From: an uncultured Actinomycetes bacterium
Lineage (GTDB): Bacteria > Actinomycetota > Acidimicrobiia > IMCC26256 > PALSA-610
NCBI GenBank assembly: GCA_963837155.1
Contig: CAWIMB010000002.1
Location: 151,144 to 215,143, forward strand
Length of the DNA stretch: 64,000 nt
Direction of reading: 5' to 3'
Positions 3,268 through 24,489 of the stretch are shown piece after piece (within the stretch, counting starts at the first letter, position 1; each line of letters opens with the position of its first letter). The position numbers and the translations under genes are program-made. The notes under the pieces were generated by a model that did no database searches, was not told the DNA's origin, and saw only the letters and a program-made list of their open reading frames with translations.

Positions 3268-4258
3268 TCAAGGGAGCAGCGAGGAGCGGCCCGCCGACCA
3301 GGCGTGCAGCAGGTGTTCCGAGAAGGCGGCTTCGGTCTTCTCAAGTGCGCGGGCGCCGAACACGATGTCGCGCGCCAGCGCGGGCTCGTCGCGCGCGAGG
3401 CCGCTCGCCATGTCGTGCAGCGCGATGCGCCCGTGGTCGACATCGGCTTCAACGTGCGCGTCGTAGAACGGTGCGCCTTCCGGGATCCCCAGGCGGCGCA
3501 GGGTGTCTGCGTACCGTCCCATGGGCTGCACGGAGCACATCTCAAACAGCGCGAGGTGTCCGACCAGGGCGCCTCGCCATCTCCGGTGCAACCCGAACAT
3601 CGAGATCAGGTTGACCGTGGCGAGCGTCACTGCCGGAATCCGATCGAGGTACGCGCCGTACGTGGGGTCGAGCTCCAACGCGTGCATCGTGTTCGCGAAC
3701 AACGTCGCGTGCATCAGCTCGCCGCGACCATCTCCGTACTCGCCGTGCTGAATCTCGACGAGCGCAGCCTTCGCTCTGCCGTCCAGACGCGGAATCGCCC
3801 ACGTATGCGGATCAGCTTCCTTCAGCTGGTAGGCCGACCGGTGGATTGCGAACTCTCGCATCTGTTGGAGCGAGCCGTGCTCGCAGAACCATTGCGAGAG
3901 CGAAGGTCCGCCACCGGATGTGAGGGCGCGGAGCTCGTTTGCGACCTCCGCCGGTTCGACGTCGGGAATGACGATCGCCAGCGCGCAGCTCGCGTTCAAA
4001 TGCCCGCTCGAGGCGGGCGCGTTCCCGGAGGAGTGACGGTTCCCACTCCCAGCCTTCGTCGACACCGGCAAAGCCCCGGTAGTGCAACTCGTACGCGATG
4101 TACAACGCGAGCATCGCGTCGTCGTCGCGGCAGACGGGGCCGACAAACGCGGGCAGCAGCGGCAGCTCGTGCGGAGGGTGCTGCAGATGCGCGAGCAGGC
4201 AGGCGCCGACCGGCCCGCGGGCGTTCGGCAGCGTCGGTCCGGTCGCGGTGCGCGACAT
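3268..4258 (-). pseudogene. iron-containing redox enzyme family protein (heme-oxygenase-like fold), frameshifted as assembled
   Basis: The N-terminal ~90 aa lie in the frame of ORF 3812..4258 (DDDAMLALYIAYELHYRGF...ERAFERELRA). The rest lies in the frame of ORF 3268..4761 (IVIPDVEPAEV...IQHGEYGDG...). Span is 991 nt = 3n+1, so one extra base near 3975-3990. Confidence 0.7.
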
Positions 4259-5701: not shown

Positions 5702-7034
5702 CGCGGAATCTCTTCAACTTCGGGCTCGTCCCGACGCCGGTCAGGCCGTCGAGCGCACCAGGTGGCACGACTTCGACGCGCATGCGTACGCCGAGGCGGT
5801 CCTTGATCCGCGCCTCGACCACACGTTGCAGCCCTGGGAACTCGGAAGCAGCTTGGTCGCTGACGACGGCGACCACCATCTCGTCGCGGTTGTCCTCGCG
5901 TATCGCGCGTACGAAGTAGTCCGGTGCGATGCCTTCGACTGCTGTCGCGACGTCGCCTACGGCTTCGGGCCACACGTTGATCCCGCGCAGCTTGACCATG
6001 TTGTCGGCCCGGCCCGCGAACGGCGCCATCTTGCGCAGCCAGCTGCCACACGCGCACTGCTCGCGCGGGTACAGGTACGAGAGATCCATGATGTTGTACC
6101 GGAATTGCGGGCTGCCGGTCTTGTACAGCTCGGTGATGCAGAGGGAGCCGAGCTCGCCGTCGGGCAATCGTTCGCCGGTCTCGGGGTCGACGATCTGCAC
6201 AATGAACGCGTCCTCGAAGATGTGGAGTCCGTCGTGTTCCGGGCACTCGACCGATACCCACTGCACTTCGTGGAAGCCGTAGGAGTTGAAGCACTCGACG
6301 CCGAAGGTCGGACTCGAGTAGGTCGCGGTCGCCGATGTTTGGCAGCGCCTTGATGTTGAAGTCGTTCTTCGGGTCGTAGCCCATCGTGCCGCGACGTCGG
6401 CGAGGCGCAGGAGATAGTCGCCGGTTGTGAGGATGGCGGTTGCGCCGTACTCGATCGCGAGCTCGACCTGCCGCTCCGAGCTCGTGACGGTGCCCGCGCT
6501 TGCCGTCAGCACGACACAGTTCAACCAACGGTGGAGCGCTTCGTCGAAGATCCATGCTCCGTTGTGCGTGCCGTAGAGCCACGAGTTCATCACGACATCG
6601 CCCGGCCGGATCCCTTGCATATAGAGCGCGCGTGCGGTCAGCAACGCGCCCACATCGCGATCCCACTGTGTGTAGAACGTCGGCCGCGACTTTCCCGTCG
6701 TGCCGCCGGACATGTACACGCGCATGGGTCCGGTCGCCGCGTCGGCCGGCGTCACCGCCTGGTAGTCGCCCCACGGCGGGTGCGCGTCGATGCTCTGGCG
6801 AATGTCGTCGACCGTGTAGCACGGCGCGCGCCACAGATCCTCGAGGGTGCGCAGTTCGGAGGCGTCGAAGCCCGCGGCCGCCCAGCGCCGCGCGAAGAAC
6901 GGCACCCGCGCGGCAGAAGCCGCCCTGGCTTGCAACCGCTCGAGTTGCACGCGCTCGATCTCTTCGGGTGGAGCGAGCCACGCGCTCTCGAAATACTCCG
7001 GCGGCGGCGGATACGCGCGCATCGAGCGCGTCAT
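5691..7034 (-). CDS. phenylacetate-CoA ligase-like adenylate-forming enzyme (PaaK / F390-synthetase family); an internal ~70-nt stretch is out of frame
   Basis: ORF 5691..7034 has YMSGGTTGKSRPT and the C-terminal PaaK-type domain. Residues RWATTRRTTSTSRRCQTSATATYSSPT are off-frame junk. The alternate frame reads MGYDPKNDFNIKALPNIGDRDLLES. Confidence 0.8.
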   Translation of the reverse strand: MTRSMRAYPPPPEYFESAWLAPPEEIERVQLERLQARAASAARVPFFARRWAAAGFDASELRTLEDLWRAPCYTVDDIRQSIDAHPPWGDYQAVTPADAATGPMRVYMSGGTTGKSRPTFYTQWDRDVGALLTARALYMQGIRPGDVVMNSWLYGTHNGAWIFDEALHRWLNCVVLTASAGTVTSSERQVELAIEYGATAILTTGDYLLRLADVAARWATTRRTTSTSRRCQTSATATYSSPTFGVECFNSYGFHEVQWVSVECPEHDGLHIFEDAFIVQIVDPETGERLPDGELGSLCITELYKTGSPQFRYNIMDLSYLYPREQCACGSWLRKMAPFAGRADNMVKLRGINVWPEAVGDVATAVEGIAPDYFVRAIREDNRDEMVVAVVSDQAASEFPGLQRVVEARIKDRLGVRMRVEVVPPGALDGLTGVGTSPKLKRFRDDR

Positions 7035-15472: not shown

Positions 15473-15843
15473 CCCGACACATCTACCGCTTCGACGACAT
15501 TGACTGGCACGTGCCGCTCGGCCCGGGCACCGATCCGGGCGTCGCCCGAGCGGCGGCCGACCGGGGTGTCGGTCGCAAGTTCCTCGCGCAAGGCGATGCC
15601 GGTTTCTTCGCGCAAGTCGTGCGGTTTCCCGCGAACTTCGAAGCGCCCGCGCACAGCCACGACCATGCCGAGGTTTTCGTGGTGTTGGAAGGCAGCTGCA
15701 TGTTCGACAGCGAGCCGATGACGCGACACGACTCGACGGTCGTGGAGGCCAACGAGAGGTACGGCTTCACCGCCGGGTCGGAGGGACTTACCTTCCTCGT
15801 CGTGCGCACCGGGAAGGCCGCGTTCCAAGGCGCGTCCGCGTGA
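15469..15843 (+). CDS. cupin domain protein
   Basis: ORF 15469..15843: FPANFEAPAHSHDHAEVFVVLEGSC. ATGA overlap with the upstream gene. Confidence 0.8.
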   Translation: MTRHIYRFDDIDWHVPLGPGTDPGVARAAADRGVGRKFLAQGDAGFFAQVVRFPANFEAPAHSHDHAEVFVVLEGSCMFDSEPMTRHDSTVVEANERYGFTAGSEGLTFLVVRTGKAAFQGASA

Positions 15844-17561
15844 CCGACTTCGACTTGGTCGTCCGCGACGGCCTGGTCGTCGACGGCATCGGGCTGCCGC
15901 GCCGCCGGGTCGACGTCGGCGTGCGCGGCGGCAGGATCGCCGCTCTTGCGCGTCTCGACGGCGCGACCGCCGACCGGCAGATCGATGCCTCCGGCTTGAT
16001 CGTCGCGCCGGGCATCGTCGACGTGCACACGCACTACGACCCGCAGATCACCTTCGATCCGTATGCGACCGTCTCGTGCTTCCACGGTGTCACCACGGTG
16101 ATCGCCGGCAACTGCGGGTTTTCGGTCGCGCCGTGCCGGGTCGACGACCGCCCGTTCCTCTCGGGAATCTTCGCTCGGGTCGAGAACATGGATCCGATCG
16201 CGTTGAGCGCGATCACGTGGGATGAATTCGAATCGTTCGGTGACTTCCTCGCGTCCCGGCGCGGCAAGTTGGGCGTGAACTTTGGCTGCTATGTCGGCCA
16301 TTCGAATCTGCGGCGGTGGGTGATGGGCGAGGACGCGTCACGGCGCGCCGCGACCGACGCCGAGATCGCGGCGATGCGTGTCATGGTGCGCGACGCGATG
16401 GCGGCGGGCGCGGCGGGACTGTCGTCGAGCGCGGCGCCGACGCACCTCGACCTCGATGATCGCCCGGTGCCGTCGCGTCTCGCCGACCGGCGCGAGCTCC
16501 TCGCCCTCGCCGAGGAGGCGGGCCGGGCCGGTGCCGGTTCGATCGCGTTCTTACCCGCGAGCGCGATCGGCGGCCTCGACCACGACGACGAGGAGTACCT
16601 GATCGCGCTCTCGCGCGTGAGCGGCTTGCCGGTGATCATCCAGGGTCTCGGCGGCCGCAACAAGGTCGACGCACCGACCGCGACGTGGGACGCGGCGCAA
16701 ACGTTCCTCGACCGCGCCACCGCGCAGGGCGCGCCGGTGTATTCGCTGCTGATCACGCGTCCGTTCGACCGGCCCGTTGTGCTCGACGAGACCAACCATC
16801 ACTACCTCGCGGTGTCGTCGTGGGAACGCATGTTGAAGCTGCCGCATGCCGAGCGCGTGCGCGTGCTCAATGATCAGGCGACGCGTGAGGAGATGCGGAA
16901 TGCGGTCGAGAACTACAACCGCGACCCCGCACGCGGCACAACCGTGCCGCCGCCGCTGTGGAGCGCCGTGTTCGTTGACGTCGTTGCCAAGCCCGAGCAC
17001 CAGCAGTTCCAAGGGCGGTCCATACGTGACATCGCGGATGAACGCGGTGTCGCGCCTGCGGACGCCATGCTCGACCTCGCCCTCGCCGAAGATCTGGCGA
17101 CGCAGTTCCGCTGGCGTACGGAGAGTCCCGAATGGACTGCCGCGGTCGGCGAGGCCCAGCGCGACGCGCGCATGCTGATCGGAGTATCGGACGGCGGCGC
17201 GCATCTTGCCCGCGACGACGGCGCCGACTGGAGCTCGTACTTCCTGCGCTCGTGGGTGCTCGACCGCAAGGTATGGACGCTCGAAGACGGCATCCGCCAG
17301 ATCACGCAGGTGCCGGCCGCGCTCGCGGGGCTGCACGATCGCGGCACGCTCACTCCCGGCGGACCCGCCGACCTGTTCGTGTTCGACCCGAGCACGATCG
17401 GACCGTGGCGGAAGGAGTTCGTGCACGATCTCCCCGGCGGCGTCGGCCGGTTCAAGGCGTGGGGCCAGGGCGTGCAGGCAACCGTCGTCAACGGCGTGCC
17501 GATCGTGCTCGACGGGGTGCTCTGTGACGCGCTCCCGGGCCAGGTGGTCCGCCCGACATGA
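15840..17561 (+). CDS. N-acyl-D-amino-acid deacylase family amidohydrolase (D-aminoacylase-like)
   Basis: ORF 15840..17561: DLVVRDGLVVDG...APGIVDVHTHYD...GVSDGGAH. Confidence 0.85.
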   Translation: MTDFDLVVRDGLVVDGIGLPRRRVDVGVRGGRIAALARLDGATADRQIDASGLIVAPGIVDVHTHYDPQITFDPYATVSCFHGVTTVIAGNCGFSVAPCRVDDRPFLSGIFARVENMDPIALSAITWDEFESFGDFLASRRGKLGVNFGCYVGHSNLRRWVMGEDASRRAATDAEIAAMRVMVRDAMAAGAAGLSSSAAPTHLDLDDRPVPSRLADRRELLALAEEAGRAGAGSIAFLPASAIGGLDHDDEEYLIALSRVSGLPVIIQGLGGRNKVDAPTATWDAAQTFLDRATAQGAPVYSLLITRPFDRPVVLDETNHHYLAVSSWERMLKLPHAERVRVLNDQATREEMRNAVENYNRDPARGTTVPPPLWSAVFVDVVAKPEHQQFQGRSIRDIADERGVAPADAMLDLALAEDLATQFRWRTESPEWTAAVGEAQRDARMLIGVSDGGAHLARDDGADWSSYFLRSWVLDRKVWTLEDGIRQITQVPAALAGLHDRGTLTPGGPADLFVFDPSTIGPWRKEFVHDLPGGVGRFKAWGQGVQATVVNGVPIVLDGVLCDALPGQVVRPT

Positions 17562-18232: not shown

Positions 18233-19422
18233 ACGTGCTTCCGAAGATCGTTTCGGCTGACGACCACGTCGTCGAGCCCGCCAACGTTTGGGTCGACCGA
18301 TTGCCGGCGAAGTACCGCGACGCGGGACCGCGCATCGTGCGCGCCCCGGTCGCCGAGATGACGTTCTACGGCGGCAAGTTCTCGTACCGCATGGGTGACG
18401 GCGGGCCGGAAGCCGACTGGTGGTTGTACGAAGACCTGCAATGGCCGCACACGCGGCTCGGGGCGTGCGCGGGATTCGCGCCCGACGACGTGCAGGTGGT
18501 GCCGATCACGTACGACGAGATGCGTCCCGGTTGCTACGAGCGCGATGCGCGACTCGCCGACATGGATCTCAACTGGGTCGAGGCGTCGTTGTGCTTCCCC
18601 ACGTTCCCTCGCTTCTGCGGGCAAACGTTCCTCGAGGCTCACGACAGGGATCTCGCCTTGCTGTGCGTACAGGCCTACAACGACTGGATGGTCGAGGAGT
18701 GGTGTGCCGATTCGACCGGCCGCCTGCTCCCGCTGTGCCTGATTCCATTGTGGGATCCGCAGCTCGCCGCCGCCGAGGTGCGACGCAACGCCGCGCGCGG
18801 CGTGCGCGCCGTGTGCTTTAGCGAGCTGCCTGCGAATCTCGCCCTCCCGTCGATTCACGACGCGAACCGGCACTGGGATCCGTTCGTGGCGGCGTGTGAC
18901 GAGACCGGCACCGTCATCTGCATGCACAGCGGCTCCGGCTCGAAGATGCCGTCGACGTCGGCCGACGCGCCTCCGGCAGTCGGGTCGACGCTGACGCACG
19001 AGCTCGCCGAGGGATCGCTCGCCGACTGGCTGTTCTCCGGCTTGCTCGCGCGCTTCACCGACGTGAAGGTCACCTATTCGGAAGGTCAGATCGGCTGGAT
19101 CCCGTACATCCTCGCCCGCGCGGATCGCATCTGGGAGCACAACCGCGGCTGGGCCGACGTGCGCGCGCTCGTGCCGGAGCCGCCGAGCACGTACTACTGG
19201 GGCCGCGTGTACGGGTGCTTCTTCGACGACGCGGCCGGTCTCGCCCAGCTCGACCGGATCGGTGCCGACCAGGTGACGTTCGAGACGGACTACCCCCATG
19301 CCGACGGCACGTGGCCACATAGCAAGGCCGTTGCCGAGCAACTGTTCGACGGCCTGGACCATGACACGGTGCGCAAGATCGTGCGCGACAACGCCCGCAC
19401 GCTGTTCGGGATCGAGGAGTGA
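18229..19422 (+). CDS. amidohydrolase (amidohydrolase-2 family)
   Basis: GTG at 18229 (GTGA overlap) inside ORF 17674..19422: VSADDHVVEP...FETDYPHADG. Confidence 0.85.
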   Translation: MNVLPKIVSADDHVVEPANVWVDRLPAKYRDAGPRIVRAPVAEMTFYGGKFSYRMGDGGPEADWWLYEDLQWPHTRLGACAGFAPDDVQVVPITYDEMRPGCYERDARLADMDLNWVEASLCFPTFPRFCGQTFLEAHDRDLALLCVQAYNDWMVEEWCADSTGRLLPLCLIPLWDPQLAAAEVRRNAARGVRAVCFSELPANLALPSIHDANRHWDPFVAACDETGTVICMHSGSGSKMPSTSADAPPAVGSTLTHELAEGSLADWLFSGLLARFTDVKVTYSEGQIGWIPYILARADRIWEHNRGWADVRALVPEPPSTYYWGRVYGCFFDDAAGLAQLDRIGADQVTFETDYPHADGTWPHSKAVAEQLFDGLDHDTVRKIVRDNARTLFGIEE

Positions 19423-19426
19423 TCGG

Positions 19427-19957
19427 ATGACAAACCACGACGGGCGAATCGAGGTGCCCGACGCATCGGAGCTGCGCGATGACGTGGCGCAGCTGCTGCC
19501 GCTGATCGCGCCGCCCGGGCGAGAGCCGGCACGCACGATGGCCGTGCTCGCCCGGCAACCGGAATTGCTCACCCCGTTCCTCGGCTGGGCCGCCGCGCTC
19601 GCGCTGAACGGTGTGCTCGCACACCGTGATCACGAGCTGCTCGCGCTCCGCGTCGCGTCGAACTGCGGGTCGGAGTTCGAGTGGGTCGAGCACACGGAGT
19701 ACGCGCGGTACGCCGGGCTGAGCGATGAGGAGATCGCGCTGGCCGCCAAACCTCTTGACGACGGGAACTGGACCGATGCCGAGCGCGCGTTGTTGCGAGC
19801 GGCTGACGAGCTGAACATCGATTGCGACATCTCCGACGCGACCTGGACCGCGCTCGCCGGACACTACGAGCCGCCCGCACTCGTGGAGATCCTGTTCGTG
19901 GTCGGTCAGTACACGATGCTGTCGATGGTCGCGAACGCGGCCGGGATCCCCGCGTGA
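19427..19957 (+). CDS. carboxymuconolactone decarboxylase (AhpD-like) family protein
   Basis: ATG at 19427 inside ORF 19298..19957: RVASNCGSEFEWVEH...VGQYTMLSM. Confidence 0.8.
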   Translation: MTNHDGRIEVPDASELRDDVAQLLPLIAPPGREPARTMAVLARQPELLTPFLGWAAALALNGVLAHRDHELLALRVASNCGSEFEWVEHTEYARYAGLSDEEIALAAKPLDDGNWTDAERALLRAADELNIDCDISDATWTALAGHYEPPALVEILFVVGQYTMLSMVANAAGIPA

Positions 19958-21036
19958 GCGGGCCCGGCGTCGCGGTTGTCGGCACCGGATTCGGGTGCCT
20001 CACGCACGTGCGGGTGTTCCGCGCGGCGGGGTTCGACGTGCGCGCGCTCGTCGGTCGCGATCCCGAGAAGACCGGGGCGCGTGCGAAGCGCTTCGAGATC
20101 CCGCACGCCTGCACGTCGCTCACTGAGGCATTGAACCTCGCCGGTATCGACGCGATCACGATCGCGACGCCACCGCACACGCATGCACCGATCGCGCTCG
20201 CGGCGATCGCTGCCGGGAAGCACGTGCTGTGCGAGAAGCCGTTCACCCGCGACGCGGCCGAGGCGCGTGAGCTGCTCGCCGCGGCCGAGGCGGCAGGTGT
20301 CGTGCATGTGCTCGGCACCGAGTTCCGGTTCGCGCCGGGACGGGTGCTGCTCGCGCGTGCCGTACGCAGCGGTGCGATCGGCGAGCCGCGCCTCGCCACG
20401 TTCTTGTTGCACATTCCGATGCTCGCCGATTCCGCGGCCGAGGTTCCCGAGTGGTGGGCCGATCCGGCCGGCGGCGGTGGATGGCTCGCCGCCCAGGCAT
20501 CACACGACATCGATCAGGTGCGCACGACGCTCGGCGAGTTTGCGAGCGTGAGCGCGAGCCTGCCGCGCGTCGCGGAACATCCGTGGGCTGTCGAGGACGG
20601 CTATCTCGTGCAGTTCCGGTTGCGTAGTGGCGTGGTCGGCATCATGCAGAGTGTCGCCTGCGATCGCGGGCCGATGCTGTTCGCGACGCGCATCGCAGGA
20701 ACGCGCGGCACTGCGTGGGCGGAAGGCGATCGCGTTCGTCTCACCGATGCCGACGGCACGCGCGACATCCCGTGCCCGCCCGACGTGGCGGTGCCCGCTC
20801 CCGATCCTCCGCCCGCGGACCTGATGGTGACCGCGTACGACTTGCTGCACGCAATGGGGATCGACTTCGGCCCGTACACGCGTCTCGCCGAGACGTTCCG
20901 CGACCTGATTCTCGGCAACGACGTGCCCGCCGACCCCGCGCCCGCCACGTTCCACGACGGCGTCGCGACGATGGACGTCATCGACGCGATCCGGCGTTCA
21001 GCCGCGGAAGGCGTCTCCGTGGAGTTGCCCGGGTGA
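19954..21036 (+). CDS. Gfo/Idh/MocA family oxidoreductase
   Basis: GTG at 19954 (GTGA overlap) inside ORF 19822..21036: VAVVGTGFG...GKHVLCEKP. Confidence 0.85.
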   Translation: MSGPGVAVVGTGFGCLTHVRVFRAAGFDVRALVGRDPEKTGARAKRFEIPHACTSLTEALNLAGIDAITIATPPHTHAPIALAAIAAGKHVLCEKPFTRDAAEARELLAAAEAAGVVHVLGTEFRFAPGRVLLARAVRSGAIGEPRLATFLLHIPMLADSAAEVPEWWADPAGGGGWLAAQASHDIDQVRTTLGEFASVSASLPRVAEHPWAVEDGYLVQFRLRSGVVGIMQSVACDRGPMLFATRIAGTRGTAWAEGDRVRLTDADGTRDIPCPPDVAVPAPDPPPADLMVTAYDLLHAMGIDFGPYTRLAETFRDLILGNDVPADPAPATFHDGVATMDVIDAIRRSAAEGVSVELPG

Positions 21037-22112
21037 CGGGCGTCGTCGTCGCGGGAACGGGCTTCGGGTGCTTCACGCATGTGCGTGCCCTGCGCGCCGC
21101 CGGTTTCGATGTCCATGCGGTCGTCGGACGCGATCCCGACAAGACCGCCGCGCGCGCCGAAGCCTTCGACGTGCCGCTCGGAAGCACGTCGTTCACGGAT
21201 GCACTCACGTTGCCGGGCGTCGATGCGGTGACGATCGCGACGCCGCCCCACACGCACGCGACACTTGTACGCGAGGCGATCGCAGCGGGGAAGCACGTGT
21301 TGTGCGAGAAGCCGTTTGCACGCGACACGTCGGAAGCGCGCGCGTTGCTGGAGACGGCCCAGGCGGCGGGCATTGTGCATCTGCTCGGCACCGAGTTCCG
21401 GTTCGACACCGGGCAGGCACTCCTCGCGCGTGCAGTGAGCGACGGCGCGATCGGTGAACCACGTCTGGCGATGTTCCTGATGCACGTGCCGGTGCTGGCC
21501 GATGCCGATGCCGTGCTCCCGGCCTGGTGGGCAGACGCCGAGCAGGGCGGTGGGTGGCTCGGCGCGCACGGCTCGCAAGTCATCGACCAAATACGCGTCA
21601 CCGTCGGCGAGTTCGAATCTGTCACCGCGTCAGTCGTTAACCTCGCCGATCGGAGCACGACAGCCGACGACGGCTTTGTTGTCCACTTCCGGTTGCACTC
21701 GGGCGTCTCGGGTGTCATGCAGAGCACGGCGGCCGACCGCGGGCGAATGCTGGTCGAGACCCGTGTGATCGGTTCGACGGGATCGGCGTGGATCGACGGT
21801 GTCGGCGACGCGGTGCACGTCGCCGACGCGCACGGGACGCGTCGGCTCCCGGTGCCCGACGATCTCCGCACCGCGCCTCCTGCTGCGCCGCCTGCGCACG
21901 TGCTCGAGACGACGTACGAGCAGATGGTCGGCCACGGGCTTGACCTCGGCCCGTACACGCGCCTCGCCGAGCACTTCCTGGCCCGCATCACCGACGCGCC
22001 GCCGCCGCCAGGACCCGATCCGGCAACGTTCGCCGACGGCGTCGCCGACATGGCAGTACTCGACGCCATGCGCCGCTCCGCCGCTCAGGGCCGGACGGTC
22101 TCTTGCGTGTAA
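21033..22112 (+). CDS. Gfo/Idh/MocA family oxidoreductase (tandem paralog)
   Basis: GTG at 21033 (GTGA overlap) inside ORF 20715..22112: VVVAGTGFG...GKHVLCEKP. Clearly paralogous to the previous gene. Confidence 0.85.
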   Translation: MTGVVVAGTGFGCFTHVRALRAAGFDVHAVVGRDPDKTAARAEAFDVPLGSTSFTDALTLPGVDAVTIATPPHTHATLVREAIAAGKHVLCEKPFARDTSEARALLETAQAAGIVHLLGTEFRFDTGQALLARAVSDGAIGEPRLAMFLMHVPVLADADAVLPAWWADAEQGGGWLGAHGSQVIDQIRVTVGEFESVTASVVNLADRSTTADDGFVVHFRLHSGVSGVMQSTAADRGRMLVETRVIGSTGSAWIDGVGDAVHVADAHGTRRLPVPDDLRTAPPAAPPAHVLETTYEQMVGHGLDLGPYTRLAEHFLARITDAPPPPGPDPATFADGVADMAVLDAMRRSAAQGRTVSCV

Positions 22113-22145
22113 ACCGGATGCCGTTGCCAGCGGTTATCCAGATAT

Positions 22146-22634
22146 ATGCGCGGGGCTGACGAGTTCGAGGCGGCGTTCCCCCGGCTCCTCGAGCGTTGCC
22201 GTCGACACGCGAATCGGCTTGTTGGCGATGCTGCCGTCGCGGAGGACCTGGCCGCGGAGGCGCTTGCCCGCACGTACGCGCACTGGCCTCGAGTTCATGC
22301 CTACGACCATCTTGATGCGTGGGTTCTCAGGGTCGTCACGAATCTCGCCATCGACACACTTGCGAAACGGCGAATCCCTCTCGAGGTTCAAACGGCCGTC
22401 ACGGGTGAGGACGCCGCCGTTCTGCGTGTCGCGCTCGCCCAGGCACTGAAGGCCTTGCCGCGCCGGCAGCGTGACGCCGTCGTCCTTCGGTATCTGGTCG
22501 ACATGACCGAGGCTGACGTTGCGCTGGCACTCGGAGTTGCTCAAGGCACCGTGAAATCTCACCTTCATCGAGCAGTCGCGCGGCTACGGCAGCTGCTCGG
22601 GCCGGCCTTCGACACCCGCTTCGAGGACGTGTGA
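22146..22634 (+). CDS. ECF-type (SigE-family) RNA polymerase sigma-70 factor
   Basis: ORF 22146..22634 with a region 2 (DLAAEALARTYAHW) and a region 4 HTH (LRYLVDMTEADVALALGVAQGTVKSHLHRA). Confidence 0.85.
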   Translation: MRGADEFEAAFPRLLERCRRHANRLVGDAAVAEDLAAEALARTYAHWPRVHAYDHLDAWVLRVVTNLAIDTLAKRRIPLEVQTAVTGEDAAVLRVALAQALKALPRRQRDAVVLRYLVDMTEADVALALGVAQGTVKSHLHRAVARLRQLLGPAFDTRFEDV

Positions 22635-23389
22635 TGAACAACGATCAATCCGAGATGGATCCGCGCACGGCGTACATCTTCGCGCGAGTGAAGAAACGTG
22701 GTCGTGTCTTGAGGCGGCGTCGTCTTATCGCACAGATCGTCGTCACGATCGCCGTTGTTGCCGTGCCGCTCACGGCATTCGCGCTGACCACCGGGGACTC
22801 GGATCGAACCGTCCGCGTTGCACATTCGTCCGATTCGACGACGCGGCCGCCGACCACGGTGAGCGCCCCGACAACCTCGACAACTCCGTCAACCACGAGT
22901 TCGAGCACAACAACACGAACGACGGTGCGGGCGTCAACACCCACGACGGTCCTTGTCTCGTGCAGGAACAGTCGCGATCCCGCGTGTGGTCCCTTCTACT
23001 ACGACCCACCGCTAAGGAACGAGGCCGCGTCGCTGCAAGTCACGGCAGTGCAACCGAGTACACCCGCTGTAGGGCAGCGCGTCACCTTCATGCTGCGGGC
23101 GAGTGACCCCGACAGCTTCTTCGTGTCGGGCGGCTTCTGCGGGTCGGCGTCGTTTGGCGACGGCCGCTCGAGCGGCTGCGGACCATCTTGCGCGGGCACA
23201 GGCGATCGATATGGCGCGTGGGATCCGCCGCAGCCGCGGCCGAGTGACGTGACCTACGCGGTCGAACACACCTATGAGAAGAACGGCACGTACCGCGCCG
23301 AGTTTTCGATTGCCGCCGATGCCTGTGGCCCGCGCCTGTCACGCGCCTCGGCGTCCACCGAGGTACGCGTGTCGAAGAGGCGCGCATGA
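22631..23389 (+). CDS. single-pass membrane protein with a Ser/Thr-rich linker and a PKD-like C-terminal domain (possible anti-sigma or sensor partner)
   Basis: ORF 22631..23389 overlaps the sigma stop. TM segment IAQIVVTIAVVAVPLTAFAL, then a T/S/P linker, then FGDG...HTYEKNGTYRAEF (PKD-type motif). Confidence 0.65.
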   Translation: MMNNDQSEMDPRTAYIFARVKKRGRVLRRRRLIAQIVVTIAVVAVPLTAFALTTGDSDRTVRVAHSSDSTTRPPTTVSAPTTSTTPSTTSSSTTTRTTVRASTPTTVLVSCRNSRDPACGPFYYDPPLRNEAASLQVTAVQPSTPAVGQRVTFMLRASDPDSFFVSGGFCGSASFGDGRSSGCGPSCAGTGDRYGAWDPPQPRPSDVTYAVEHTYEKNGTYRAEFSIAADACGPRLSRASASTEVRVSKRRA

Positions 23390-24072
23390 GCCATGACGGT
23401 GCCAGCGCGGGCTCCGTGTGCGGATGTACTCGTCTCTACACTTGCGGTGTGGTACCGGAGGGCTTTGACCCAGATCGCTGGGTGGTGCTGTCACGCACGA
23501 TGAACATTCCGGGCCGATGTTTTCTGGGCGGCAACATGCACACGCACTACGGCCATTTTCATGCCTGGAGCGAAGACCTCGGGGATCTCGTGACCGTTGC
23601 GAAGCACGACGTCGTCGATGCGTCCCCGCTCGCGCGTGCATGGATCGACGGGTTTCTGGTCGGAAGCGAACCTCGCCTGCACGAGTACCTCGGCATCAGC
23701 GCCGACGAGGCCGGCAACATCGACCGCGATCAAGCTGCCTTTGTGCGTTGGCGCGCCGACATGGCTGTGGCTCGTGACCGAGGCTGGATGCCGATGCTCC
23801 GACTCCGGCCGTCTTCGCCAGTTCCGGCCGACGCCGAGCACCTTGAGCCATGGTGTTGGGTCGGTGGCGAGTTCTGGGCGTGGCGCAACGGGACATGGGG
23901 CGTTGTAGACCCCGCGCCTCCAATGCGAGATGGGTACCTCGCAAGCTCGATCTGCGAGAGTCGTAAGCACTGCGATTTGGCCATGTTCGGTGCGTACGCC
24001 ATTTGCATGGACTGCGGCGACGCCACGGAAATCGAACTGGACGAGACGGACGAGTCGCTCAACGACGGCTGA
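23386..24072 (+). CDS. hypothetical Cys/His/Trp-rich protein
   Basis: ORF 23386..24072, ATGA-coupled to the previous gene. CGC...C near the N-terminus and HCD...CMDCGD near the C-terminus. No family recognised. Lower G+C by eye. Confidence 0.55.
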   Translation: MSHDGASAGSVCGCTRLYTCGVVPEGFDPDRWVVLSRTMNIPGRCFLGGNMHTHYGHFHAWSEDLGDLVTVAKHDVVDASPLARAWIDGFLVGSEPRLHEYLGISADEAGNIDRDQAAFVRWRADMAVARDRGWMPMLRLRPSSPVPADAEHLEPWCWVGGEFWAWRNGTWGVVDPAPPMRDGYLASSICESRKHCDLAMFGAYAICMDCGDATEIELDETDESLNDG

Positions 24073-24075
24073 CAA

Positions 24076-24093
24076 GCCGAGGACAACCTCGGC
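24076..24093 (+). terminator. stem-loop after the ECF cassette
   Basis: GCCGAGG-ACAA-CCTCGGC, 4 nt after the stop at 24072. No T-tract. Confidence 0.4.
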
Positions 24094-24198
24094 CGCGCAT
24101 ATGACTGCCATACGTGGCGCGCTGGCGGAAATAATGCATCCGTATCGGTCGGCGCCTACGCGATGATGTCGGAATGGAATGGCCGAGCGATGACAACC

Positions 24199-24252
24199 GA
24201 CGCCATGCGCCGCTCCGCCGCCGAGCAACGGACGGTCGCAGTCGAGTCATGA
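24199..24252 (+). pseudogene. relic 3' end of a Gfo/Idh/MocA-type gene
   Basis: Reads DAMRRSAAEQRTVAVES-stop, against LDAMRRSAAQGRTVSCV-stop at the end of 21033..22112. 24 nt are identical (24198..24221 = 22061..22084). Confidence 0.55.
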
Positions 24253-24489
24253 CCGTCGCCAGGCAACGAGCGCCGCAATGAAGGGTGAGGCGACAAGCAC
24301 CACATTGCCGGCGAGCGTGAAGAGCGCGCCTGCTGTGCCCGAGATCGGCTGGACCCCCTTGCACTCGCTGCCGCCGCCGAAGCAAAGCTTCGTCTGAAGG
24401 GCGCTGCCGATCGTCGCGAGCACCACCGCGACGCCGATCCCGGCGGCCAGGACGAGCGCCGGTACGAACCACTGTTTCGTTCTTGTCAT
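24247..24489 (-). CDS. small membrane protein (80 aa, two hydrophobic segments)
   Basis: ATG at 24489 inside ORF 24247..25461: MTRTKQWFVPALVLAAGIGVAVVLATIG...ALFTLAGNVVLVASPFIAALVAW. Confidence 0.5.
   Translation of the reverse strand: MTRTKQWFVPALVLAAGIGVAVVLATIGSALQTKLCFGGGSECKGVQPISGTAGALFTLAGNVVLVASPFIAALVAWRRS

Follow-up and report, generated by a model that had tools for sequence, protein, structure and literature searches.

For the exchange of rhs tips, homologous recombination with circular intermediates has been proposed (Jackson et al. 2009, PMC2935791). For displacement at rhs, contact-dependent inhibition (CDI) and type VI secretion system (T6SS) loci, both circular intermediates and homology-facilitated illegitimate recombination have been put forward (PMC2935791; Kirchberger et al. 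2017, PMC5361080). Here we describe a comparable scar in a stretch of 64,000 nt (positions 151144-215143 of contig C2 of a 5.54-Mb genome), in the following called the window. A segment of foreign composition, with its own promoter and a modular make-up, lies at the 3' end of gfoB, an oxidoreductase gene of the Gfo/Idh/MocA family. It encodes an extracytoplasmic function (ECF) sigma factor, a membrane protein and a third, unrelated protein, is bounded by a 24-nt direct repeat, and has the native end of gfoB stranded behind it.

The likeness to the rhs, CDI and T6SS loci is close. The incoming DNA would have brought a copy of a conserved gene end, a new tail and cargo; the resident gene reads the new tail, and the old tail lies orphaned downstream behind a short conserved segment, with no dedicated recombinase. 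As expected of a displaced end, the orphan tail is preceded by a copy of the shared core and is the ancestral one by its match to orthologs. The resident gene here is, however, a metabolic oxidoreductase and not a polymorphic toxin with an immunity gene. Moreover, the new tail consists of 8 functionally trivial codons (22085-22108), the cargo is regulatory, and there is a single event, no array and no evident selective logic for a tail swap.

A second likeness is to the cis-mobilizable elements (CIMEs) of the ICESt3 family (fda, rpsI and rpmG; PMC7563491), where small cargo (1.2-13 kb) without integration or transfer genes lies between short direct repeats at the 3' end of a protein gene and leaves its target intact. 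In contrast to these, the present locus has no related integrase-bearing element and no second copy of an attachment (att) site, the tails of its repeats are strongly diverged, and no other instance was found. The cargo itself resembles the modules of ECF sigma factor and single-pass anti-sigma factor (TIGR02983), with a sigma factor made of sigma2 and sigma4 only, a coupled membrane gene with an extracytoplasmic domain, and a conserved -35/-10 motif before the sigma factor's own gene, suggesting autoregulation. It differs from them in its short cytoplasmic part of about 30 residues, matched by no known anti-sigma model, in a sigma score just under the TIGR02983 cut-off, and in a -35 box which doubles as the stop of the upstream gene. 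The event is a tidy, essentially ordinary scar of horizontal gene transfer and a new instance of known processes.

The features of the locus are as follows.

21033..22112, + strand: gfoB, Gfo/Idh/MocA oxidoreductase (Pfam GFO_IDH_MocA with C-terminal domains), last gene of a long operon
22061..22084, + strand: left repeat copy (putative recombination core), encoding (L)DAMRRSAA of gfoB
22085..22108, + strand: putative surrogate Gfo-like tail, QGRTVSCV, matching the relic tail at 14 of 24 nt and gfoB orthologs at 6-13 of 24
22109..22135, + strand: predicted ECF-type promoter GTAAACC-N16-GGTT, with 10 nt between the end of its -10 box and the ATG
22146..22634, + strand: ECF sigma factor, 162 amino acids; Pfam Sigma70_r2 (1.3e-9), Sigma70_r4_2 (1.5e-16) and r4
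22631..23389, + strand: single-pass membrane protein, GTG start overlapping the sigma stop (GTGA); family alignment A4
23399..24098, + strand: apparently independently travelling unit of a conserved leader of about 50 nt, third gene and hairpin, 78-79% identical in DNA to loci L022-L026
23449..24072, + strand: third protein, about 207 amino acids, family start GTG 23449; 158 representative clusters by phmmer
24076..24093, + strand: stem-loop GCCGAGG-ACAA-CCTCGGC, 3' of the third gene, partly conserved in L022 and L023
24094..24197, + strand: unique non-coding right arm, without similarity in L022-L026 or elsewhere in the genome
24198..24252, + strand: right repeat copy (24198-24221) and apparently displaced native gfoB tail, identified by comparison with orthologous tails
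24247..24489, - strand: native gene for a small membrane protein, 80 amino acids, with a G+C content at third codon positions (GC3) of 0.81 (37th percentile) and no family match

The repeat and the displaced end of gfoB

The window contains two exact copies of the 24-mer CGACGCCATGCGCCGCTCCGCCGC, at 22061-22084 and 24198-24221 (none expected in shuffled sequence), and these are also its only two copies in the genome. The first-pass annotation, made from the letters of the window, had described this repeat, and it had correctly read copy 1 as the last codons of gfoB (ending in LDAMRRSAAQGRTVSCV-stop) and copy 2 as the opening of an orphan 18-codon reading (DAMRRSAAEQRTVAVES-stop). Ungapped similarity of the copies runs on to 40 nt at 88%, on the side of copy 1 to 22100. 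That they represent an assembly artefact or a chance repeat without shared history is hardly credible, metagenome-type assembly though this is: an assembler would not be misled by a repeat as short as 24 nt, the homology keeps the frame and reaches 40 nt, and both tails are Gfo-like. An inverted repeat at 22139-22153 and 24093-24107 (13 of 15 positions) was judged to be a chance match, its left arm being the conserved start-codon region of the sigma gene.

Between the two copies there are no differences in the first 24 nt and ten in the next 24. By our own arithmetic, all ten would fall in one half with a chance of about 0.001. A duplication that started out identical and then decayed should show an even spread and does not fit this pattern. 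Furthermore, divergence of this amount would predate the genus, whose other members lack the insert, so that the incoming DNA would already have had a diverged Gfo-type 3' end. We infer that it carried a pre-existing, diverged Gfo-type homolog.

Comparison with orthologs shows which of the two ends is old. Both gfoA and gfoB carry PF01408, PF22725 and PF02894, that is, a Rossmann NAD(P)-binding domain and the C-terminal alpha/beta domain. In the same-genus relatives G001 and G003, gfoB is 78% identical at the amino acid level, and both genomes have the gfoA-gfoB pair without the cassette; the pair is also present in more distant relatives. Other relatives used in the comparisons below are G014, G015 and G027. 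In all relatives compared, DNA homology with the window ends at 22084-22100. Upstream of the core, copy 1 matches gfoB of G003 at 33 of 44 positions and copy 2 at 15 of 44, as random sequence does. Downstream, the order is reversed: the relic tail matches gfoB of G003, G001, G015 and G027 at 19, 16, 14 and 13 of 24 nt, respectively, and the present gfoB tail at 13, 10, 9 and 6. The relic reads ...AAEQRTVAVES and the present gfoB ...AAQGRTVSCV at the end; the ends of the orthologous proteins are AAEHRTVAVDAS, AAEHRTIALQRT, ...AASHTTAVVAG and ATEHARVVVEPVTG. Since the locus is ortholog-like to the left of copy 1 and to the right of copy 2, the ancestral gene would be the part left of copy 1, one core and the tail after copy 2. 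In other words, the relic is by this comparison gfoB's own original tail, and gfoB, although still a full-length open reading frame (ORF), is now chimeric, native up to 22084 and with its last 9 codons and stop (22085-22112) derived from the insert. The inserted DNA comprises 22085-24197 and one core copy, 2137 bp in all.

The left junction points the same way. The present stop codon of gfoB is a TAA at 22110-22112 within the -35 box of the sigma promoter. A stop inside an imported -35 box implies that the insert supplied the stop of a truncated gfoB, which contradicts any model of an untouched gfoB followed by a replaced paralog. Such a model had been offered by the first-pass annotation, in which the cassette was inserted into, or replaced, a third oxidoreductase. 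Its first half stands, as atypical DNA was inserted and the repeat does stem from an oxidoreductase 3' end; the third paralog itself has to be given up. According to this explanation, a third tandem Gfo/Idh/MocA paralog once lay 3' of gfoB and lost all but its last 18 codons to the cassette. Tandem Gfo paralogs do occur here, and paralogs can share perfect 24-mers. Yet it is the gfoB orthologs with which the relic tail groups, rather than gfoA or other paralogs (7-12 of 24), and it is closer to all four of them than the present tail is. In no relative does a third tandem copy stand here, those of the same genus having the gfoA-gfoB pair only, and with its stop inside the imported promoter gfoB itself has been truncated. 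We regard a replaced third paralog as very unlikely.

The composition of the insert is atypical, though the deviation is moderate. Its G+C content is 0.641 as compared to 0.674 for the genome, which places it within the lowest 4.5% of the genome's 2.1-kb windows. In a set of 4453 genes of at least 100 codons, derived with an iterated codon model, mean GC3 is 0.822 (standard deviation 0.055); the sigma, membrane and third genes have values of 0.710, 0.738 and 0.728 (3.9th, 8.3rd and 6.4th percentiles). The flanking genes are typical: gfoA lies at the 34th percentile, gfoB at the 42nd, the small downstream gene at the 37th, a flavin-reductase-like gene at the 94th and UbiA at the 91st. The lower G+C content and surplus of A/T-ending codons which had been noticed by eye are thus borne out, to a moderate degree. 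The native codon model even favoured antisense ORFs over the sigma and membrane genes. Native composition resumes at the 80-residue gene, which converges on the relic with abutting stop codons (TCATGA).

The end of gfoB is also a synteny breakpoint, at which a conserved block of about 19406-22100 (a CMD/YciW-like gene, gfoA and gfoB) comes to an end. In G001, G003, G014 and G015 homology stops at gfoB and the 3' genes are all different, so that synteny revealed no empty site; the arrangement which the first-pass annotation had suggested looking for, a Gfo pair followed directly by the 24247..24489 gene, is not seen in any relative. Ends of gfoB were also examined in L018, L019 and L020, and the downstream genes differ between G001, G003 and the window.

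How the segment may have entered

We consider it rather probable that a foreign composite segment of 2137 bp recombined at the 3' end of gfoB via short Gfo-type homology and left a scar of C-terminal displacement. The incoming DNA would have carried a copy of the core and a Gfo-like surrogate tail fused to an ECF promoter, followed by the sigma gene, the gene for the PKD-like membrane protein, an unrelated gene with its hairpin and a spacer of about 100 nt. With this DNA in circular form, one crossover of the Campbell type would have joined it to the chromosome. As a result, gfoB would end in the incoming tail, with the TAA of the -35 box as its stop, and the native tail would remain as a dead relic 2.1 kb downstream. 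The observed order of host 5' part, core, foreign tail, cargo, core and host tail is that expected from a single reciprocal crossover with a circle. We infer the circular intermediate, and general homologous recombination rather than a site-specific integrase. A crossover between the two 24-nt repeats would remove exactly the insert and bring gfoB back to its original form.

Several points weigh against this interpretation. A stretch of 24 nt is short for RecA-dependent recombination. No circular junction, empty site or donor was found in the seven inspected contexts of homologous sigma genes or in exact-match scans of two collections, and in none of the seven does a Gfo gene lie upstream of the sigma gene, as it should in a donor. 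The source is a MAG-like (metagenome-assembled genome) assembly, 85% complete and in 3 contigs. What follows gfoB is different in each relative, so that its native state is given by tail similarity alone. Finally, gfoA and gfoB, which are about 68% identical overall, have another perfect 24-mer in common, TGCTCGGCACCGAGTTCCGGTTCG, which is unrelated to the repeat and lies at equivalent positions of the two genes (window 20309-20332 and 21382-21405; C2:171452 and C2:172525). It could reflect motif conservation together with codon bias, or a small gene-conversion tract. Because of this second shared 24-mer, perfect identity alone does not prove a crossover, and shuffled sequences overstate its improbability. 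Exact-match scans of genome and metagenome contig collections for the 24-mer of the repeat returned chance matches only, in unrelated genes and mostly in HypC-like C-termini, with no empty site, attP or second insertion among them, and we found no second example of the displacement.

None of the 25 tyrosine recombinases (PF00589) of the genome lies in the window, in agreement with the first-pass annotation, which had seen no recombinase; the nearest is about 150 kb from the insert. This bears on the explanation that the segment is a decayed, CIME-like site-specific integrative element, with the repeats as attL and attR, a replacement 3' end, and integrase and transfer genes lost or acting in trans. 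Its topology would be the same as that of the crossover with a circle, and integrase-less, att-flanked remnants of 1.2-13 kb are documented at the 3' ends of protein genes (PMC7563491). The 24-nt direct repeats lie at a 3' end and the gfoB ORF is full-length, as such an element would have it; the genome does encode 25 tyrosine recombinases, and a homolog of the membrane protein adjoins a TrwC relaxase in L030. However, the window has no integrase, and the core is found in no third place, which leaves no related resident element. The real elements of this genome look different (30-57-nt tRNA-derived repeats, 4.5-18 kb, integrase mostly inside), homologous sigma modules elsewhere have no flanking repeats, and the family of the third gene has no viral, plasmid or phage match. 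In addition, the tail borne by the element is only 58% identical to the native tail. On balance we think a decayed integrative element unlikely.

We hold homology-facilitated illegitimate recombination of a linear fragment to be comparably unlikely. Here a donor gfoB' would have served as the anchor and the far end would have been joined 24 nt upstream, thereby duplicating the core. Such recombination is documented, and displaced ends of effector and rhs genes have been attributed to it (PMC5361080; PMC3240628). It accounts for the one-sided homology and the missing recombinase, and needs no circle. On the other hand, the illegitimate joint must fall exactly at the start of the identity block. 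The mechanism usually deletes recipient DNA rather than duplicating it.

We give scant credence to a bolder version, in which the insert is a still active representative of a class of small "promoter-first" regulatory cassettes, as yet undescribed, that either have no recombinase or are mobilised in trans. These would target gene 3' ends via a short copied end, with their -35 box providing the replacement stop and the 24-nt repeats serving for excision; the SH3-like/zinc-ribbon protein would be their output or a mobility factor.

Compared to all of these, the single crossover of a foreign segment through short Gfo-type homology remains our preferred interpretation. Current understanding is not overturned by it. 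The locus is a base-resolved example of how a ready-to-run module of promoter, sigma factor and sensor enters a new genome, where the host gene need not be destroyed. C-terminal displacement, known mainly from toxin loci, would also occur at ordinary metabolic genes. For annotation, the orphan 18-codon frame finds an explanation, and the present C-terminus of gfoB would not be the native one.

The sigma factor module

The sigma factor has sigma2 and sigma4 and lacks regions 1.1 and 3, as is characteristic of group 4 (ECF) sigma factors, and reaches 69.6 bits with TIGR02937 (cut-off 42.9); together with the matches to Sigma70_r2 and Sigma70_r4_2 this confirms the earlier assignment as an ECF sigma factor. 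The best NCBIfam model, TIGR02983 (SigE-type, actinobacterial), scores 137.1 bits, marginally below its cut-off of 141.55, and by this measure the protein stays outside that subfamily. It has hundreds of homologs, the best of which (65-76% identity) are in metagenomes.

The membrane protein is composed of a short basic cytoplasmic helix, a transmembrane helix, a linker rich in Thr, Ser and Pro, and a Cys-containing, PKD-like ectodomain. The AlphaFold2 (AF2) model of the ectodomain has a pLDDT above 85, and its top Foldseek matches are the PKD-like domains of the collagenases ColG and ColH (4aqo: E 2.2e-4, TM-score to target 0.80, probability 1.00). The PKD beta-sandwich fold which had been suggested for the ectodomain is thereby supported. 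The window protein has no Pfam PKD match; some homologs carry PF00801 or PF18911. Its cytoplasmic part of about 30 amino acids forms one helix in the model, and no recognisable anti-sigma domain (zf-HC2, RskA or similar) was matched in Pfam or NCBIfam. The sigma gene is followed by a coupled gene for a membrane protein of 177-247 amino acids in every context examined, in otherwise unrelated neighbourhoods (Lhr helicase and M1 peptidase; aconitase and GntR; NlpC/P60; an AMP-binding ligase; a CsoR-like repressor and permease). True homologs of the window protein directly follow sigma genes in L027, L028, L029, L042 and L043 (A4); further loci with sigma homologs are L045 and L051-L054. The coupling is thus conserved as a gene pair across genomes, and from this pairing the membrane protein is presumed to be the cognate anti-sigma factor or sensor. 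The insert would accordingly function as a self-contained unit of sigma factor and membrane sensor. No flanking repeats were found around the homologous modules in other contigs.

In the first-pass annotation all three genes had been called translationally coupled. This holds for the sigma and membrane genes with their GTGA overlap; the third gene owes its ATGA overlap to an N-terminal extension that is missing from its homologs.

Homologous sigma genes in other contigs are preceded by the conserved motif GT[A/C]AACC-N16-GGTT, which in six of the seven loci lies 37-40 nt 5' of the start codon (53 in L042). The distance from the end of the -10 box to the start codon is 10-13 nt in L045, L051, L052, L053 and L054, and 26 nt in L042. 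In L043 the GTAAACC is present and the -10 box altered; the more distant sigma genes of L027 and L029 have TAAAGG...CGTT. The strict motif occurs once in the 5.54-Mb genome. A search for a regulon with a relaxed motif gave four occurrences in the genome, which is about chance level, and no other copy fronts a gene. The promoter of the insert is probably of the ECF type, autoregulated and near-leaderless, and at present its sole evident target in the genome is probably the sigma unit's own operon. Since there is no terminator before 24076, the third gene may be co-transcribed by read-through.

As to the origin of the module, sigma homologs in genomes of the same genus reach 47% identity at most, and the best relative 61%. 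Contig L042 stems from a fairly close relative; its neighbour genes are 73-84% identical to genes of the window's genome. In L042 the sigma pair lies between Lhr and the M1 peptidase, with a GC3 of 0.77-0.82 as compared to 0.80-0.83 for its neighbours. The window's genome has the same neighbourhood at C2:93.8-105.6 kb, where two other genes of native composition take the place of the sigma pair. These are two unrelated minus-strand genes (164 and 197 amino acids, native GC3) at C2:98305-100290, corresponding to L042:5932-7155. Judging from the differing Lhr/M1 locus, gain, loss or exchange of the module has taken place at more than one site in the lineage. With a GC3 of 0.71-0.74, the window pair seems to have been imported from a lineage of lower GC rather than to be a relocated ortholog. 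L043 (74% identity, sigma GC3 0.72) illustrates such a lineage.

Two further observations concern this family of proteins. At L030:1772-5738, a TrwC-type relaxase gene is directly followed by that of a distant membrane-protein homolog (P0030, 31% identity), which has no sigma gene upstream. This is a hint that conjugative elements, too, carry PKD-type membrane proteins of the family. Downstream of the sigma-membrane pair of L027 there is a perfect 55-nt direct repeat (6064-6118 and 6151-6205) with a spacing of 87 nt.

The third gene and repeats elsewhere in the genome

The first-pass annotation had proposed the third protein as a new partner in a sigma/anti-sigma-type module. We come to a different view. 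The loci with close homologs (60-82% amino acid identity), L022-L026 and L038-L039, have no sigma gene; the neighbours there are small unannotated genes or genes of accessory type. The DNA common to the window and L022-L026 is the span 23399-24098 and nothing else. Pairs of sigma and membrane genes without the third gene occur at at least eight other loci, the third-gene family without any sigma gene nearby in at least three other contexts, and all three genes together in none of the sigma or third-gene contexts examined. Because the pairs recur without the third gene, and the third gene recurs without sigma, it would not be a partner of the module at the level of the family; from its distribution it appears to be a hitch-hiker. 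The insert is thus a composite of the sigma-membrane module and an independently travelling third gene.

The start shared by the family also lies further downstream than the ORF in this window suggests. In this window only, a 228-residue frame is open from ATG 23386 to the stop at 24072. The homologs all start at a GTG matching 23449, and four codons 5' of this start the frame is closed in L022 and L023 by a TAA or TAG, where the window has TAC (23437-23439). Only the window, therefore, has the 21-residue extension with its "CGC..C" cluster and the ATGA that overlaps the end of the membrane gene. The Cys clusters earlier described for the third protein accordingly lose their "CGC..C" member, which lies in DNA that is untranslated in the homologs. 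The opened frame overlapping the membrane-gene stop may be incipient translational coupling or an accident.

That the protein belongs to no recognised family has been upheld. Sequence and profile searches gave no match in Pfam, PHROG, NCBIfam, PADLOC or PDB. Its AF2 model is confident (pLDDT 93.9, pTM 0.85), and Foldseek returned no significant whole-chain neighbour in PDB and BFVD (best E 0.1-0.2, none below E = 0.09), giving weak local SH3/Tudor-like matches only. By secondary structure, the model consists of an N-terminal five-stranded SH3-like barrel, a helical middle part and a small beta-sheet. The C-terminus has a zinc-ribbon-like C-x5-[C/H]...C-x2-C motif, and the protein is Trp-rich and cytoplasmic. 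From these domain types one might guess, and it is only a guess, that it binds nucleic acid or protein. The fusion partners of the family (HEAT repeats, DUF402) are uninformative.

The family is rare and widely scattered. Among 301 genomes of the class a member turned up in two, and among 401 genomes of the phylum in one, which is the genome of the window itself; the protein is absent from 40 relatives. The viral, plasmid and phage collections IMG/VR, PLSDB and INPHARED gave no match. With 158 clusters at 50% identity, no Pfam model, and a confident fold without structural neighbours, it is a reasonable target for curation and for work on structure and function.

The stem-loop at 24076..24093, also seen at first pass, was confirmed. 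It is likely a terminator without a U-tract; a consensus terminator scan did not call it, and the accompanying scan for sigma-70 promoters gave nothing informative. Searches of the non-coding arms for a structured RNA or tRNA-like att site gave no Rfam match, no credible tRNA and a fold z-score of -1.8.

In L023, the leader of the third-gene homolog (CGATCGGGCAAT..., 3289-3307) is repeated at 4009-4027 before the next, unrelated gene (229 amino acids). The repeated leader could be a shared regulatory or ribosome-binding motif of a gene array. The neighbouring gene in L023 was considered as a paralog of the third gene and rejected on comparison.

Elsewhere in the window, ARAGORN calls a 97-nt "tRNA-Glu(ctc)" at 16472-16568, within the coding region 15840-17561, which is probably a false positive. 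The genome has at least 15 classic integrated elements. Their ends are exact repeats of 30-57 nt resembling tRNA 3' ends; they measure 4.5-18 kb, are mostly of lower GC, and most have one of the 25 tyrosine integrases inside. Examples are C1:146267/154101, C1:271525/276638, C1:320746/335577, C1:759875/767481, C1:888648/894786, C2:3259854/3264383, C3:18156/26157 and C3:147192/160832. The repeat triplets C2:359006/370279/380858 and C1:706003/709920/727967 suggest tandem arrays. Furthermore, two pairs of near-identical duplicates were seen, one EF-Tu-like (about 1.2 kb, 18.9 kb apart, C1:1119925-1121100 and C1:1138841-1140016) and one protein-kinase-like (about 1 kb, 6.0 kb apart, C2:3612218-3613240 and C2:3618219-3619240).

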